DNA from: an uncultured Saprospiraceae bacterium
Lineage (GTDB): Bacteria; Bacteroidota; Bacteroidia; Chitinophagales; Saprospiraceae
DNA: 38,174 bases
Direction of reading: 5' to 3'
Assembly: GCA_937930625.1 (NCBI GenBank)
Contig: CALHBW010000097.1
Location: 1 to 38,174 of the forward strand
Position 1 is the stretch's first letter; each line of letters begins with the position of its first letter. Shown in pieces: positions 1,697 through 32,874 of the stretch. The notes under the pieces are model-generated. The model saw nothing but the letters and a program-made list of their open reading frames with translations. It did no database searches and had not been told where the DNA came from. Made by a program: the position numbers and the translations under genes.

Positions 1697-1822
1697 TTGT
1701 TTCATGGTTTCATGGTTTCATGGTTCGATTGTTTCATGGTAATAATGATAATTTGCAAAGCAAAATTATCATTAAATAAAAACAATGTAACAATGAAGCC
1801 ATATAGCAATGAAACAATGAAA
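1697..1822. repeat. Word-palindrome, TGGTTTCA words with TTTGCAAAGCAAA core (rpsM|rpmJ gap)
   Basis: Left arm ttgtttcatggtttcatggtttcatggttcgattgtttcatgg; core palindrome 1745..1772; right arm aacaatgtaacaatgaagccatatagcaatgaaacaatgaaa. Confidence 0.85.
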
Positions 1823-11553: not shown

Positions 11554-11660
11554 TGTTGTATGTTCGATTGCTGTATTGTTTGATGGTTCGATTGCTATAT
11601 AAAATTTTGCTTTGCAAAATTTCAATATAACAATGAAGCCATTCAACAATATAACAATGA
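11554..11660. repeat. Word-palindrome, GGTTCGATTG/TTGTTTGA words with TTTGCTTTGCAAA core (rplP|rpsC gap)
   Basis: Left arm gttgtatgttcgattgctgtattgtttgatggttcgattgctatat; core 11606-11618; right arm aatataacaatgaagccattcaacaatataacaatgag. Confidence 0.85.
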
Positions 11661-14397: not shown

Positions 14398-14532
14398 ACT
14401 TTCATTGTTACATGGTTTCATGGTTGTATTGTTTCATTGTTTTTTTTATTATTTATGAATTTTGCAAAGCAAAATTTAATAACTATATGAACATAAAAAC
14501 AATAAAGCAATCGAGCAATGAAACAATGAAAC
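14398..14532. repeat. Word-palindrome, TGGTTTCA words with TTTGCAAAGCAAA core (rplB|rplW gap)
   Basis: Left arm ctttcattgttacatggtttcatggttgtattgtttcattg; core 14461-14473; right arm caataaagcaatcgagcaatgaaacaatgaaacc. Confidence 0.85.
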
Positions 14533-26581: not shown

Positions 26582-27189
26582 ACGAATCACCGATCACCAA
26601 GCAATTAGACTTTGAAAAAGGCGGCGGCATCCTCCCCGCCATCATTCAGGATAGCGACACCCGCCAAGTCCTCATGCTCGGCTACATGAACCGCGAAGCA
26701 CTCAACAAAACCCTCGCAGAAGGGCGCGTCACCTTCTACAGTCGCAGCAAAGAACGCCTCTGGACAAAAGGCAAAACCTCCGGCAACTACCTCACTATCA
26801 AGGAAATAAAAATAGATTGTGACAACGATACGATACTCGTACAGGCAAGCCCCGCAGGTCCCGTCTGTCATACGGGCAGCGATACTTGCTTTGATGAAAC
26901 CAACGAAAACCAACACTTTTTACAGCACTTGGAGCGCGTTATACAGCAGCGACGCGACGAGCCTTCGGGCGAGTCCTACACCAGTTCGTTATTCCGCAAA
27001 GGCATCAACAAAGTCGCCCAAAAAGTAGGCGAAGAAGCCGTAGAACTCGTCATCGAAGCCAAAGACGACAACGACGACCTCTTTCTCGGCGAAGCGGCAG
27101 ATTTGATGTATCATTACCTCGTCCTGCTTGCCGCCAAAGGCAAAACCCTCAAAGATGTCATCCAAGTACTCGAATCAAGGCATAAATGA
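26578..27189 (+). CDS. hisIE: Bifunctional phosphoribosyl-AMP cyclohydrolase / phosphoribosyl-ATP pyrophosphatase
   Basis: ORF 26551..27189 trimmed to the Met at 26578 (ATGA overlap with the GNAT stop). HisI motifs LPAIIQD...YSRSKERLWTKGKTSGN...CDNDT...CHTG and a HisE C-terminal half. Confidence 0.9.
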   Translation: MNESPITKQLDFEKGGGILPAIIQDSDTRQVLMLGYMNREALNKTLAEGRVTFYSRSKERLWTKGKTSGNYLTIKEIKIDCDNDTILVQASPAGPVCHTGSDTCFDETNENQHFLQHLERVIQQRRDEPSGESYTSSLFRKGINKVAQKVGEEAVELVIEAKDDNDDLFLGEAADLMYHYLVLLAAKGKTLKDVIQVLESRHK

Positions 27190-27196
27190 TAATTAC

Positions 27197-27320
27197 ATTG
27201 TTTCATAGTTTCATGGTTCGATTGTTTGATGGTTCGATTGCCAGATGGTTTAGCCGTTTTTTTGCTTCGCAAAAAAACGATAATAATAATGAAACAATGA
27301 AACCATCAAACAATCGAATC
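27197..27320. repeat. Word-palindrome, GGTTCGATTGTTTGATGG words with TTTGCTTCGCAAA core; overlaps the glycosyltransferase start
   Basis: Left arm attgtttcatagtttcatggttcgattgtttgatggttcgattg; core 27257-27277; right arm aatgaaacaatgaaaccatcaaacaatcgaatc. An 18-nt run, ttcgattgtttgatggtt, is complementary. The ATG at 27297 lies in the right arm. Confidence 0.88.
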
Positions 27321-28862
27321 ATCCTCATTTTCTTCGCCTTTTTCTTCCTCATTCGGCTCATCGGCATTACCAATTCGCCACTCGAAATCGGGCATAATTG
27401 GCGGCAATGCCTCACGAATATGGTCGCAAGAAATTTCCTCGAAATCGACGCGAATATTTTCTTTCCACGCATCGACATTGCAGGCGAGAAAACGGGCATT
27501 ATGGGCGCAGAATTTCCACTGTTCAATTACTTGATTTACTTGGCTTCGTGGCTCTTTGGTGAGACGCATTGGCATGGTCGGTGGATAAATTTAATCGTCT
27601 CTACCGCAGGTATTTATTATTATTTTTTATTGGTAAAAGAATTATTTAACAAAAAAATAGCCGCTTACGCGACCATTATTTTGACCGTATCTGTATGGTT
27701 TGATTTTTCGCGTAAAATAATGCCCGACACCTTCAGCGTCGCGCTCGTGCTAATTGGGTTTTACTACGGTTTTTGCTATCTCAAAAAAGGAAATTTTTGG
27801 CGACTTGCACTCTTTTTTGCACTCATTACATTAGGCATTTTAAGCAAATTATCTGCCCTTAGCCTAATGAGCTTTCTGCTGATTCCCCTCTTAATTCCAC
27901 AAATAAAAATCGGACGTAAAATCGCTATGACATTGGCGGCTGCCTTGTGCGTCACATTGGTCGGCGCATGGTATTTTTATTGGGTGCCACATTTAGCAGA
28001 AGCGTATGGTTACATGCTTTATTTCCCAAGAAGCCTTGCAGAAGGCGCAGCAGAAATCGCAGTATTATGGCAACTGACTTTGGAGAAATTTTACTTTAGT
28101 GCCTTTCATTCTTATGTGGCTTTTGCGTGTTTTTTGGTGGGTTTGTTTGTTTTATTTTTTAATAATTTTTGGACTCGAAATAAAATCGAAAATTCGCGCT
28201 CTGTGTCGTCCTCCCCCCAGCCCCCTCCAAAGGGGGAGACGAATGCGAGTAGTTCTTCGCTTCGCGAAGAATCTCCCCCTTTGGAGGGGGCTGGGGGGTG
28301 GAAAAACGGTAAAGCGCATTTTTTTAATTTAATTAATGATAAAAAAATATTTTATTTAAAGATAGGAATAATCACATTCGCACTGATTTTCTTTTTATTT
28401 ATGCTAAAAACGGGCGAAGTATTCCCTCTGCATAATTATTACATCATTCCTGCTGTGCCTTTGATGGCTTTAGTTGCTGCTTTATTTCTCGCTAATTTAA
28501 AACCCAAATACGCGCTAATTATTCTGACCGTCATCACAATTGAAGGCATTGCCAATCAGTACCATGAATTTTTTATCAAAAAAAATGAGCGTTATAAATT
28601 AACATTGGAAAGCATTGCAGATAAGATAACGCAAGCAGACGACCTCATCATCATCAACGACGGCAGCCGCAACCCACAACAAATGTACTTCGCCCACCGC
28701 AAAGGCTGGACGATTAATCAGGAAGACCTCAACCCCGCACATATCGCTCAAATGCAGACACTTGGCGCAAGTTATTTATTCGTCAACAAAAATTTATCAC
28801 AACAAAAATTTGAATATAAAACAGTGTACGAAGACAAGCATTACATCATCTACAAATTATAA
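27297..28862 (+). CDS. ArnT/PMT-like (GT39/GT83-type) membrane glycosyltransferase
   Basis: ORF 27186..28862. All candidate starts lie inside a repeat; Met38 (27297) precedes the first TM. Polytopic N-terminal part with a soluble C-terminal part. Carries an in-frame GC-rich palindrome at 28213..28298. Confidence 0.7.
   Translation: MKPSNNRIILIFFAFFFLIRLIGITNSPLEIGHNWRQCLTNMVARNFLEIDANIFFPRIDIAGEKTGIMGAEFPLFNYLIYLASWLFGETHWHGRWINLIVSTAGIYYYFLLVKELFNKKIAAYATIILTVSVWFDFSRKIMPDTFSVALVLIGFYYGFCYLKKGNFWRLALFFALITLGILSKLSALSLMSFLLIPLLIPQIKIGRKIAMTLAAALCVTLVGAWYFYWVPHLAEAYGYMLYFPRSLAEGAAEIAVLWQLTLEKFYFSAFHSYVAFACFLVGLFVLFFNNFWTRNKIENSRSVSSSPQPPPKGETNASSSSLREESPPLEGAGGWKNGKAHFFNLINDKKIFYLKIGIITFALIFFLFMLKTGEVFPLHNYYIIPAVPLMALVAALFLANLKPKYALIILTVITIEGIANQYHEFFIKKNERYKLTLESIADKITQADDLIIINDGSRNPQQMYFAHRKGWTINQEDLNPAHIAQMQTLGASYLFVNKNLSQQKFEYKTVYEDKHYIIYKL
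28213..28298. repeat. GC-rich palindromic element (27-bp perfect IR) inside a CDS
   Basis: ccccccagccccctccaaagggggaga (28213-28239) is the exact reverse complement of 28272-28298. The spacer holds ttcttcgc-ttc-gcgaagaa. Translated in frame as SPQPPPKGETNASSSSLREESPPLEGAGGW. Confidence 0.92.
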
Positions 28863-30812: not shown

Positions 30813-31028
30813 TTGTCGTTGATTCGTTATTCGTTGATTCGTTATCCGTGTATTCGTTACTCGTGTATTCGTTATTCGTTGACTCGTTATTTGTTGATTT
30901 TATTTGCCAAAGGCAAAATAAAAAAACAAGTACACGAATAACGAGTACACGAAATAACGGGTACACAAATAACGAATACACGAGTCAACGAAACACGAAT
31001 AACGAATCAACGAATAACGAATACACGA
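30813..31028. repeat. ~216-bp word-palindrome, CGAATAA/CGTGTAT words with TTTGCCAAAGGCAAA core
   Basis: ~86-nt left arm and ~104-nt right arm. For example attcgttattcgttgattcgttatccgtgt is complementary, bar 1 mismatch, to acacgaataacgaatcaacgaataacgaat. Core at 30903-30917. The right arm ends 1 nt before the recN ATG. Confidence 0.9.
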
Positions 31029-31029
31029 A

Positions 31030-32696: not shown

Positions 32697-32874
32697 TTAT
32701 TCGTTGACTCGTTATTCGTTTTTTAACTAATTAATAATCAATGACTTACTGCAATTTTTAATTGTCAATGAATTACGAATCAAACCAGTATGCGAATTTT
32801 ATACTTATAATTTTGCGAAGCAAAATCCAATCAAAAATCAAAAATCACTCACTCCATCAAAAATCATTTCACTC
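32697..32874. repeat. Composite element after recN (CGAATAA words, TTTGCGAAGCAAA core, AATCAAAAATCAC words)
   Basis: 32697-32730 is identical to 23607-23640. Core at 32812-32824. The tail tccaatcaaaaatcaaaaatcactcactccatcaaaaatcatttcactc runs into the stop of the 32864 gene. Confidence 0.8.

Follow-up and report, generated by a model that had tools for sequence, protein, structure and literature searches.

The window, by which we mean the whole 38,174-nt stretch of DNA from an uncultured Saprospiraceae bacterium that was analyzed, carries ribosomal-protein genes together with hisIE, PMT_2 glycosyltransferase, recN-like, and AMP-ligase genes, and long palindromes lie in their spacers and, in one case, inside a gene (Table 1). 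Eight sites had been listed in an earlier reading made from the letters alone (the sequence-only reading), and all eight were found where it had placed them: five are exact TTTGC-N3-GCAAA hairpins, hereinafter cores (1752, 11606, 14461, 27261, and 32812), and three are variants, namely, TTTGCC-AAA-GGCAAA at 30903 and two members of a sister class, TTCGC-N3-GCGAA, at 717 and 28253. When folded as single-stranded DNA, five long hairpins of the window gave z scores of -3.4 to -10.8, while no Rfam family matched the window at the gathering score. In the element at 1691-1823, the G-opposite-A mismatch reported for each word was confirmed and arises because GTTTCATG and GTTTCATT words alternate with a 16-nt period; the rpsM/rpmJ spacer of the congener G004 contains no palindrome. 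The 15-mer at 32811-32825 lacks a left arm and is thus a truncated copy of the GATTTTT composite family, and the GC-rich element at 28209-28302 belongs to a high-copy family found across the whole genus.

Table 1. Cores, sister-class tips, and palindromes of the window, in order of position.
Feature	Positions	Setting	z of ssDNA fold
Sister-class tip ATTTCGC-TAC-GCGAAAT	717-733	rpsD/rpsK spacer, off-centre; AGTTCA array 679-704, TTGAAC array 784-816	
Word palindrome, 133 nt, with core at 1752	1691-1823	GTTTCATG/GTTTCATT arms, 72% complementary; TRF period 8/16	
Core TTTGC-AAA-GCAAA	1752-1764	Apex of hairpin 1691-1823, rpsM/rpmJ spacer (flanking genes by Pfam)	-6.6
Core TTTGC-TTT-GCAAA	11606-11618	Apex of 92-nt word palindrome 11567-11658, rplP/rpsC spacer	-5.0
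Core TTTGC-AAA-GCAAA	14461-14473	Apex of 126-nt word palindrome 14407-14532, rplB/rplW spacer	-3.4
Word palindrome, 110 nt, with core at 27261	27213-27322	GTTCGATT/GTTTGATG words	
Core TTTTTTTGC-TTC-GCAAAAAAA	27261-27273	Apex, spacer from hisIE to PMT_2 glycosyltransferase gene	-8.5
Sister-class tip TTCTTCGC-TTC-GCGAAGAA	28253-28271	Apex of GC-rich REP-like palindrome 28209-28302, inside PMT_2 gene	-10.8
TCGTTAT/TCGTTGAT palindrome, 214 nt	30816-31029	Arms 77 nt, 84% complementary	
Variant core TTTGCC-AAA-GGCAAA	30903-30917	Apex of palindrome 30816-31029, upstream of recN-like gene	
Full 15-mer TTTTGC-GAA-GCAAAA	32811-32825	Convergent recN-like/AMP-ligase spacer; followed by AATCAAAAATC words 32826-32874	

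The core is strongly enriched. Dinucleotide shuffles of the window contained 0.14 exact matches on average, and none of 100 shuffles reached the five observed; genome-wide, TTTGC-N3-GCAAA occurs 129 times in 4.18 Mb, compared with ~4.9 copies expected from base composition, and ~108 of these copies are non-coding. A position matrix of 106 copies yielded the 17-mer consensus W-TTTTGC-[G/A]AA-GCAAAA-W, beyond which the flanks have background composition and carry no information. The unit originally described as TTTGC-NNN-GCAAA therefore stands as a core, although its stem is longer (6 bp, with the extra positions being T in 89% and A in 93% of copies) and its loop is not a free NNN (position 1, G 73% or A 26%; position 2, A 80%; position 3, A 92%). 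The full 15-mer TTTTGC-GAA-GCAAAA is present in 62 copies, while AAA/TTT loops, which are not the optimal GNA form, account for 24 copies (19% of the 129 matches). The sister class, typified by TTCGC-GTA-GCGAA, has 107 genome copies and favors GTA/TAC and GCA/TGC loops (GTA 30, TAC 23). Another core type proposed by the sequence-only reading does exist and is minor, with 9 strict and 29 relaxed genome matches. Intergenic DNA (0.76 Mb) contains perfect 5-bp triloop hairpins closed by GC with the loops GAA (41), TTC (39), GTA (34), and TAC (26), compared with 0 to 0.6 each in shuffles, and GNA/TNC loops make up 60% of the 274 non-coding 5-bp GC-N3-GC hairpins, against 12.5% expected and 23% in coding DNA. 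The core contains the GC-GNA-GC heptamer, with its C-G closing pair and G..A triloop; written as a DNA strand, the cap is d(TTTTGCGAAGCAAAA). Judged by its letters, the core is thus the mini-hairpin DNA motif d(GC-GNA-GC), embedded in an A/T tract that melts easily.

The sequence surrounding each core was folded directly, and random positions served as controls: at least 20 pairs enclose 81% of the 108 non-coding cores (random intergenic positions, 42%; spacer midpoints, 49%) and at least 30 pairs enclose 67% of them (20% and 28%, respectively). Accordingly, neither the frequency of the motif nor the inverted arrays around it correspond to background. The core had been thought to be centered between complementary arms, and in 29 of the 34 long-hairpin cases it lies at 0.4 to 0.6 of the hairpin length. 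The arms use different words, as previously noticed: 56 types of canonical words adjoin the core, and at least seven unrelated word families have it in common. Word palindromes were cataloged by TRF-based pairing of arrays, which gave 564 inverted pairs, with a median span of 115 nt, versus 46 direct pairs, in 113 word families. Catalogs seeded on exact 6-mers or derived from whole-spacer folds missed cores with imperfect arms or in multibranch folds and recovered only 30 to 50 of the 129. The cap sits on 30 of 563 (5%) strictly defined word palindromes and is thus not required for such hairpins to exist.

These word palindromes have long inverted arms built from short tandem repeats, as is typical of foldback elements. 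G and C are unequal in 543 palindromes; in 480 of these, irrespective of gene orientation, the 5'->3' direction of the array's G-rich strand points to the dyad. A translation-based account of this polarity, with stops in the 5' arm and no starts in the 3' arm, was rejected, given that tandem GTTTCATG has no stop in any frame and the complement arm has an ATG. One group, sub-family A, is a dispersed element of ~190 nt with defined ends and 77 to 94% identity among copies; no clear terminal inverted repeat or target-site duplication was seen in the eight copies inspected, and BLAST of the element against the genome assembly (70% complete and fragmented) returned no related autonomous insertion sequence.

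The distribution of the core is lineage specific. Copies of the 15-mer number 2, 11, 34, 62, 84, and 89 in the six species of the genus, five of which have the core in common, and 134 in one other genus (G063), compared with 0 to 6 in 78 other Saprospiraceae genera. The core caps word palindromes in G004 and GC-rich near-perfect hairpins in G063. In G063, the arms are distinct in 26 of 32 core copies, although mismatches affect just 14 of 748 arm positions (1.9%), and with respect to the flanks, the core loop is found either way round. Its sharing by at least seven word families, five of six species, and a second genus agrees with the earlier view that the core is kept independently of the arms and does not result from plain slippage. 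The same holds at rplP/rpsC, where the core stem is invariant in four species and the arms have diverged beyond alignment; the loop there is TTT in the studied genome and G083, TTC in G082, and GAA (flipped) in G084. At the other four of five orthologous sites, the core is found only in the studied genome; the flanks and outermost words are conserved, and the interior is rebuilt. For instance, the rplB/rplW spacer of G082, G083, and G084 contains a TAATGTA-word palindrome with an AT-only tip, and the hisIE/PMT_2 site of G082 and G083 has GATTGTAT words around a different, GC-rich center. The site corresponding to 30816-31029 shares only the outermost words with G082 and G083, which have neither the right arm nor the tip, while the recN-like/AMP-ligase spacer is unrelated in G082 and G083 and holds an independent core-bearing element in G004. 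Moreover, hairpins of at least 25 pairs occupy 16 of 29 ribosomal-protein spacers in the studied genome, against one of 29 in G004, and the elements turn over between species that are 91 to 96% identical in ribosomal protein L2.

Location and orientation bear on what the core could do. GC-closed triloop hairpins (cores included) reach 0.72 per kb of spacer between convergent genes, 0.45 between codirectional genes, and 0.13 between divergent genes, a pattern that is typical of REPs and MITEs. Least credible is the proposal, made in the sequence-only reading, that TTTG on both strands supplies the -33 and -7 elements of Bacteroidota sigma-A promoters. TTTG does occur on both strands by construction, and the minus strand at 1761-1768 reads TAATTTTG as described, but TAnnTTTG is found on 24 of 215 core arms (11%), compared with 13.4% of any intergenic TTTG; the triloop hairpins are 5.6-fold rarer per kb in divergent than in convergent spacers, and 28 of the 129 cores are flanked by convergent genes, whose spacers require no promoter. 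It is also extremely improbable that TTTTGC-N3-GCAAAA serves as a 6+6 dyad for a dimeric DNA-binding protein. Sequence conservation and perfect symmetry of the two half-sites, together with one orthologous site kept across four species, would fit such an operator, but the sites are least frequent in divergent promoter regions, restriction of the center to GNA/TNC is unusual for an uncontacted spacer, most sites sit on top of long hairpins, and the copy number ranges from 2 to 89 among congeners. A supercoil-buffering cruciform is also disfavored by the convergent enrichment, because positive supercoils accumulate in convergent spacers. That the hairpins act in transcripts, as 3'-end stabilizers, RNase III-type processing sites, or attenuators whose UUUUGC/GCAAAA apical stem would be recognized by an RNA-binding protein or nuclease, is unlikely but carries real weight. 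Consistent with such a role, the repeats separate co-transcribed genes and occupy a majority of the spacers in the ribosomal-protein cluster, they are concentrated downstream of genes, the rplP/rpsC core is conserved in four species, and the stem, being palindromic, would give the same RNA stem in either orientation, so that this reading is equally orientation independent. Against it, the sense strand carries GNA and TNC loops equally (40 versus 42), and half of the transcripts would therefore carry UNC loops; an early split of 27 versus 13 at 40 sites vanished with 82 to 103 sites, and GNA lies on the G-rich contig strand 49 times and on the C-rich strand 48 times (contig GC skew as a replication proxy). 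Furthermore, C-G-closed GNA triloops are the DNA-stable form and much weaker as RNA (PMC13037366), while the classical stable RNA caps, UNCG and GNRA tetraloops, show no comparable excess and no strand preference in intergenic counts. In the position matrix, neither strand shows a U-tract after the hairpin; Rfam searches by gathering score and by E-value returned no family, with copies from G063 and G004 yielding nothing but microRNA-like noise below threshold; and most sites are unconserved even among 93 to 96% identical relatives. An intrinsic terminator was rejected as well, the core stem being AT-rich and the downstream flank A-rich on both strands.

Like REPs, the cores are short, high-copy extragenic hairpin repeats that lie mainly downstream of genes, and the core could accordingly be a REP mobilized by a REP-associated tyrosine transposase (RAYT; an IS200/IS605-type Y1 HUH enzyme), and the sequence-only reading had named such an enzyme as an example of a protein whose copy number might track the element. 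Y1 genes are present in four of the six species of the genus and in G063, and the congener with two cores has none. Yet no Y1 gene was found in the studied genome, which has 62 15-mers, although transposases and other genes with repeats at their borders may be missing from the assembly (4.18 Mb, 70% complete, 587 contigs). Across the family, Y1 is encoded in 60 of 81 genomes, only three of which have the core in numbers. The Y1 genes of G004 are flanked by another REP (GCCCT-GAA-AGGGC plus CAGGGC-AAC-GCCCTG) that has zero copies in the studied genome, and the Y1 gene of G063 is flanked by other palindromes, with the nearest core 2.4 kb away. In addition, the GTAG/CGTC tetranucleotide is absent beside the core (position matrix, 106 copies). 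Overall, this route is very improbable, and a search covering the Y1 family revealed no transposase encoded by or matching the elements. Alternatively, the core may have no function, all copies descending from one ancestral hairpin whose arms turn over by slippage and inter-arm template switching while the tip persists as the loop-proximal stem, the part least affected by slippage. We consider this unlikely, though it deserves serious attention: the arms are slippage-prone tandem arrays, arm changes are mirrored in the partner arm, as the low mismatch rate in G063 indicates, and loops are inverted at the orthologous site in G084 and within the G063 family, as intramolecular template switching predicts. 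Nevertheless, the 15-mer caps unrelated arms (AT-rich words here, GC-rich stems in G063) and appears de novo where close relatives have another center or none, so that descent with decay does not explain the pattern; constraint is indicated by the GNA excess (60% versus 12.5%) and by the division into two discrete classes (TTTTGC-GAA and TTCGC-GTA).

We tentatively favor, at somewhat less than even confidence, the reading that the core serves as an apical, modular cap that nucleates, at the DNA level, the folding of REP/MITE-like non-autonomous foldback repeats. Such repeats, comprising word palindromes of ~70 to 200 nt and some GC-rich REP-like hairpins, would have colonized the intergenic spacers of the genus, including most spacers of the ribosomal-protein gene cluster. 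Whenever the DNA becomes single-stranded or torsionally stressed, the GC-clamped triloop would fold first and set the register for zipping of the long, repetitive, slippage-prone arms. The folded form would be needed by the element for persistence and spread, either through hairpin-dependent mobilization or through template switching across the dyad, and the cap would therefore travel, or be gained, as a unit at the center of spacer palindromes in either orientation. Folded DNA is probably the relevant form, and mobility is suggested by distribution, given that no transposase, target-site duplication, or excision product was found. The invariant stem amid diverged arms at rplP/rpsC could instead reflect host-level purifying selection, as opposed to selfish spread, and a protein or nuclease recognition site or a replication or transposition origin at the core, as initially proposed, is possible. 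A more far-reaching idea, which we regard as quite unlikely, is that the cap marks the growing point of self-renewing bacterial DNA, with spacer interiors being rebuilt repeatedly from the dyad outward, either because mini-hairpin modules insert in a nested fashion into the tips of existing hairpins or because 3' ends pointing at the dyad direct tandem synthesis. This would explain why the G-rich strand runs towards the dyad in most palindromes, why flanks and outer words persist from species to species as interiors and tips are replaced, and why the same GNA caps occur on unrelated arms in two genera.

Intergenic short tandem repeats of heptamer/octamer-type words occur in cyanobacteria as STRR, and the small dispersed repeats of Nostoc (Elhai et al., 2008, Genome Res 18:1484) reportedly set a precedent for very small (~20-nt) repeated units. 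Together with the entry of IS1397-type elements into REP loops (cited in PMC3116915), they also provide a precedent for insertions that target hairpins and tandem-repeat contexts. Both the Nostoc repeats and IS1397 differ from the present elements in sequence, host, and architecture, and it is our between-species comparisons that suggest that the cap may insert as a unit. The closest structural match is the mini-hairpin d(GCGNAGC)/d(GCGNNAGC) of Hirao and colleagues, whose DNA form resists heat and nucleases to an extraordinary degree, whereas the RNA form is much less stable: r(GCGAAAGC) melts at 39 C, a far lower Tm than that of the DNA version (PMC13037366). Natural mini-hairpins act on single-stranded or extruded DNA at the origins of phages G4, St-1, and alpha3 and in RSF1010 ssiA priming, and the hairpin promoters of the N4 virion RNA polymerase have a 5-bp stem with a GGA or GAA loop (PMC13037366). 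The core shares the GC-GNA-GC heptamer, with a sheared G-A triloop closed by C-G, and differs in its fixed TTTT/AAAA extension, its 60 to 130 chromosomal copies, and its place atop long tandem-word hairpins.

REP/BIME/REPIN elements with RAYTs (PMC3733652, PMC2817692, and PMC3116915) likewise consist of short hairpin repeats in intergenic DNA, number from tens to hundreds of copies, lie mostly downstream of genes, and vary in copy number between related species, and a congener of the studied genome has a classical RAYT with its own flanking REPs. Unlike REPs, the elements described here have no GTAG/CGTC tag, no RAYT association, and an AT-rich rather than GC-rich stem, with the core at the apex of 70- to 200-nt tandem-word palindromes. 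Foldback transposons (Drosophila FB, Galileo, and Tetris; PMC3573991, PMC3688188, and PMC4079207) resemble them in their short-tandem-repeat inverted arms, arm length that varies among copies, and small middle domain; they differ in being eukaryotic, kilobase-scale, and served by known transposases binding the repeats, while 113 word families and the lack of any transposase found here make one enzyme per word family implausible. The bacterial TAACTGA repeats (Beggiatoaceae, Cyanobacteria, and some Bacteroidetes; PMC4679880) are similar intergenic arrays of 7- to 9-nt words with a patchy phylogeny. Those arrays are direct and oriented towards the downstream start codon, with one inverted case reported among 170 sets (PMC4679880), whereas the arrays here form facing pairs with a hairpin cap between them. 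Our literature searches on Saprospiraceae and Bacteroidota turned up no previous account of GNA-capped tandem-word palindromes.

Both short tandem word repeats and REP-like hairpins were recognized in bacteria decades ago, and apart from the RAYT-linked REPs, their origin is unexplained. This genus ties the two kinds together by placing facing word arrays under a defined DNA mini-hairpin cap, a structure that has until now been encountered chiefly in N4 hairpin promoters and in the single-strand origins of phages and plasmids. The elements fill more than half of the spacers of a highly conserved gene cluster by the 25-pair criterion and leave the cluster undisrupted, although the resulting stem-loops between ribosomal-protein genes reach -20 to -50 kcal/mol with ssDNA parameters and about -35 to -95 kcal/mol with RNA parameters. 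The fragmentation of assemblies from this group, which run to hundreds of contigs, is probably also due to the repeats. If the cap does mark a growing point, a hairpin-specific enzyme or repair pathway would generate the long-unexplained heptamer/octamer repeats of bacteria. The genus thus offers a natural system for the birth and replacement of foldback repeats, for the folding of GNA mini-hairpins in vivo, and for the tolerance of operons to stem-loops.

The source genome (4.18 Mb in 587 contigs, 70% complete, 40% GC) shares no more than 74 to 75% ribosomal protein L2 identity with Saprospiraceae genomes assembled from metagenomes. Most spacers in the window, which carries the str/S10/spc/alpha ribosomal-protein cluster, hold a 70- to 200-nt imperfect hairpin whose arms are tandem words of 6 to 9 nt (hereafter, word palindromes), and single-stranded DNA folding of the window elements gave z-scores from -3.4 to -10.8. 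All eight mini-hairpins listed by the sequence-only reading were located correctly: the window holds five exact copies of the core TTTGC-N3-GCAAA (0.14 expected from shuffles), and the mini-hairpins at 717 and 28253 are members of a sister class, TTCGC-N3-GCGAA. According to Pfam, three of the window cores are flanked by genes for S13, IF-1, L16, S3, L2, and L23, and the other two by genes for HisIE, a PMT_2 glycosyltransferase, a RecN-like ATPase, and an AMP-dependent ligase; the copy at 32812 is a truncated member of the GATTTTT family.

Genome-wide, the core occurs in 129 copies, against ∼5 expected from base composition, and ∼108 of these are non-coding. Moreover, at least 20 enclosing pairs surround 81% of the non-coding cores (42% of random intergenic positions), and at least 30 surround 67% (versus 20%), with the core lying centrally within long hairpins, so that the original observation of a centered mini-hairpin was confirmed. 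Intergenic 5-bp GC-closed triloop hairpins with the loops GAA, TTC, GTA, and TAC numbered 26 to 41 each, versus 0 to 0.6 in shuffles. An alignment-free position matrix of 106 copies gave the consensus W-TTTTGC-N3-GCAAAA-W, the loop positions being G (.73) or A (.26), A (.80), and A (.92), with no conservation outside it. Thus, the proposed stem holds and extends to 6 bp, while the loop is a GNA (or AAA) triloop rather than an arbitrary N3. The sister class (107 copies) prefers the loops GTA/TAC and GCA/TGC, and GNA or TNC, one triloop read on either strand, accounts for 60% of the 274 non-coding 5-bp GC-N3-GC hairpins, compared with 12.5% expected and 23% among coding ones. The core heptamer, d(GC-GNA-GC), matches the sequence definition of the "mini-hairpin DNA" motif. 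As DNA this motif is extraordinarily stable, far more so than its RNA form; in nature it is known to act where DNA is single-stranded or extruded, at phage G4-type origins, RSF1010 ssiA, and N4 hairpin promoters (PMC13037366).

To place these caps among the word palindromes, arrays of period 5 to 10 were collected with TRF (7,153 rows, 4,386 non-redundant); strict pairing yielded 564 facing (inverted) pairs in 113 word families, and 46 direct pairs. The core sits at the center of 30/563 word palindromes (5%) and is thus a recurrent yet minority cap. TTCGC-class tips are roughly as numerous, and other tips recur, e.g., TTTAT-TTC-ATAAA; the "second core type" of the sequence-only reading is present but minor, with nine strict hits. 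Canonical words adjoining the core number 56, mainly in the groups GATTTTT, GTTTCATG-like, TCGTTAT, GGGTTAC, TAATGGT, and GACGTGCT. G exceeds C in the 5' arm and C exceeds G in the 3' arm in 480 of the 543 word palindromes with unequal G and C, a rule seen in the window and genome-wide, with polarity fixed within each word family. Unpaired arrays are laid out likewise, whether the spacer is convergent, divergent, or codirectional (G>C at relative position 0.19 to 0.27, C>G at 0.67 to 0.81), indicating that the G-rich strand runs 5' to 3' towards the spacer center regardless of gene orientation. The same arm polarity was found in Neolewinella persica and two other relatives.

At least some core-bearing elements are dispersed repeats. 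Sub-family A is a ∼190-nt composite with defined ends, whose copies are 77 to 94% identical and lie beside unrelated genes; it comprises a GTGGC-GAA-GCCAC mini-hairpin at the left end, a GTTTCATG-word palindrome capped by TTTTTTGC-GAA-GCAAAAAA, and a CTCTTGC..GCAAGAG hairpin. A near-identical center occurs at a non-orthologous site in the congener G004. The GATTTTT family is likewise composite, with one TTTTGC-TTC-GCAAAA and one TTCGC-GTA-GCGAA hairpin, that is, one GNA cap per strand. In addition, a GC-rich REP-like family is present in high copy in 6/6 species of the genus (33 to 107 strand matches per genome), and its isolated 32-nt arms are often 100% identical.

Positions of the elements and neighboring features (C97 is the window; other contigs are from the same genome; sub-family A has further copies)
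Feature	Contig	Position	Remark
Ribosomal-protein cluster	C97	58-22195	Minus strand
Word palindromes showing arm polarity	C97	1691-1823; 5194-5334; 30816-31029	
Conserved 85 nt	C97	11465-11550	By rplP start codon
Repetitive rpsC 3' end	C97	11664-11790	
Palindrome before PMT_2 gene	C97	27213-27322	Window 27186-27330
Long ORF	C97	27186-28862	Traverses 27213-27322
GC-rich REP-like palindrome	C97	28209-28302	Window 28205-28306; in frame inside PMT_2 glycosyltransferase gene
GC-rich REP-like family	C97	38102-38143	
GC-rich REP-like family	C582	5516-5613	
Sub-family A	C443	3598-3793	
Sub-family A	C464	6431-6591	
Sub-family A	C210	2321-2502	
Sub-family A	C67	14194-14339	

Regarding the long ORF in the table, the protein translated from 27333, with its PMT_2 domain, still matches Pfam; translation therefore probably begins past the element, leaving the palindrome intergenic.

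The 15-mer TTTTGCGAAGCAAAA occurs 62 times in this genome; 2, 11, 34, 84, and 89 times in five congeners; 134 times in one genome of another genus (G063); and 0 to 6 times in 78 other genera, its reversed control giving 0 to 1 copies. In G004, it tops word palindromes made of other words. In G063, it tops a GC-rich near-perfect hairpin within a ∼170-nt composite repeat (∼134 copies; e.g., loci L087-L096 and L121-L140) that has three further GNA/TNC mini-hairpins. The 22-nt arms of the main hairpin there are distinct in 26/32 copies, yet complementary (14/748 arm positions mismatched, 1.9%), and the apical loop reads GAA or TTC relative to the flanks, in both orientations. These arms also hold nested CC-GAAA-GG or CC-GCAA-GG mini-palindromes.

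Orthologous spacers differ strongly between congeners. Hairpins of at least 25 pairs occupy 16/29 ribosomal-protein spacers here versus 1/29 in G004 (∼85% protein identity), with summed spacer lengths of 5.9 and 2.2 kb, respectively; the expanded spacers are common to G082 and G083 (96% L2 identity) and G084 (91%). At rplP|rpsC, the core is present in 4/4 species with an invariant stem and the loops TTT, TTC, TTT, and GAA (flipped), and the arms cannot be aligned between species, yet pair with themselves within each. This bears out the claim that the core is a unit conserved apart from its arms and not a product of slippage. Three other sites (rplB|rplW, hisIE|PMT_2, and the one upstream of the recN-like gene) retain their flanks and outermost words and differ in the interior; among the relatives compared, only this genome has the core there, and in the others the tip is AT-only, a GC-rich hairpin is nested instead, or the right arm is absent. 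In the convergent recN-like|ligase spacer, the relatives' sequence is unrelated to that here, and G004 carries its own, independent core-bearing element. Taken together, these comparisons suggest that the cap has been gained or replaced at spacer centers over a short evolutionary time and, at one site, was kept while the arms changed. Separately, conservation across four congeners is good in the 85 nt beside rplP but not in the adjacent palindrome; the 85-nt stretch contains a small GCCCC..GGGGTGC hairpin that may be a leader or regulatory structure. At its 3' end, rpsC codes for a tail of GC-rich CCGCC-type repeats with a 21-nt period, apparently variable in length among congeners; tblastn matches end early, so the extra sequence was counted as "spacer."

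We tentatively favor, at somewhat under even odds, the reading that the cap is a folding nucleus and that folded DNA enables these elements to persist, correct arm against arm, and spread. The A/T tract would open easily and the GC-clamped GNA triloop snap shut, together fixing the register of long repetitive arms otherwise pairable in many registers; the folded form would let foldback elements persist and spread, and arm-against-arm correction would be in keeping with the loop flips and mirrored arm changes. Orientation showed no bias, with 40 GNA versus 42 TNC on the sense strand of codirectional spacers, and 49 GNA strands on the G-rich versus 48 on the C-rich strand by contig skew. Inside each family, the loop keeps one orientation relative to the asymmetric flanks; orientation differences thus reflect placement of the whole element, as expected for insertions. 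Triloop hairpins are densest in convergent spacers (0.72 per kb, versus 0.45 in codirectional and 0.13 in divergent ones). A role as an RNA-level stem-loop seems unlikely; the stable RNA caps UNCG and GNRA showed no comparable excess in this genome. Equally doubtful is a neutral by-product of common descent and template switching.

Of the functions proposed by the sequence-only reading, neither sigma-A promoter boxes nor a REP-associated tyrosine transposase (RAYT) was upheld. TAnnTTTG is no more frequent on core arms (11%) than in the background (13.4%), and cores are depleted in divergent spacers, which makes promoter boxes the least credible explanation; a duplex operator is scarcely more so. 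Mobilization as a REP by a RAYT is improbable, albeit less remote than these: Y1 genes occur in 60/81 family genomes and number 0, 2, 2, 4, and 9 in five congeners, but none was found in this 70%-complete assembly, and those of G004 and G063 are flanked by other palindromes. The G004 genes (L114 on C38, L115 on C37) have the classical RAYT arrangement, with REP doublets (GCCCT-GAA-AGGGC plus CAGGGC-AAC-GCCCTG) on either side, and this genome has zero REPs of that type. At L114, the doublets continue directly into arrays of TGAAACCA words, which are complementary to the TGGTTTCA words of the window, a hint that REPs and some word arrays can be physically linked.

Among known systems, the elements resemble REP/BIME/REPIN and MITEs in copy number and placement, but showed neither the tag nor the RAYT of REPs; of MITE features, eight inspected copies of sub-family A gave no clear terminal inverted repeat or target duplication, and BLAST of the element against this fragmented, 70%-complete assembly found no parent insertion sequence. 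Eukaryotic foldback transposons (FB, Galileo, and Tetris) have the same build, with long inverted short-tandem-repeat arms around a small middle. The unexplained heptamer repeats of Beggiatoaceae, Cyanobacteria, and some Bacteroidetes are related by their word arrays, but were described as direct arrays (PMC4679880), whereas the elements here are facing pairs. Literature searches yielded no earlier account of GNA mini-hairpins capping tandem-word palindromes. We class the elements as REP/MITE-like foldback repeats that carry an unusually well-defined DNA mini-hairpin module.
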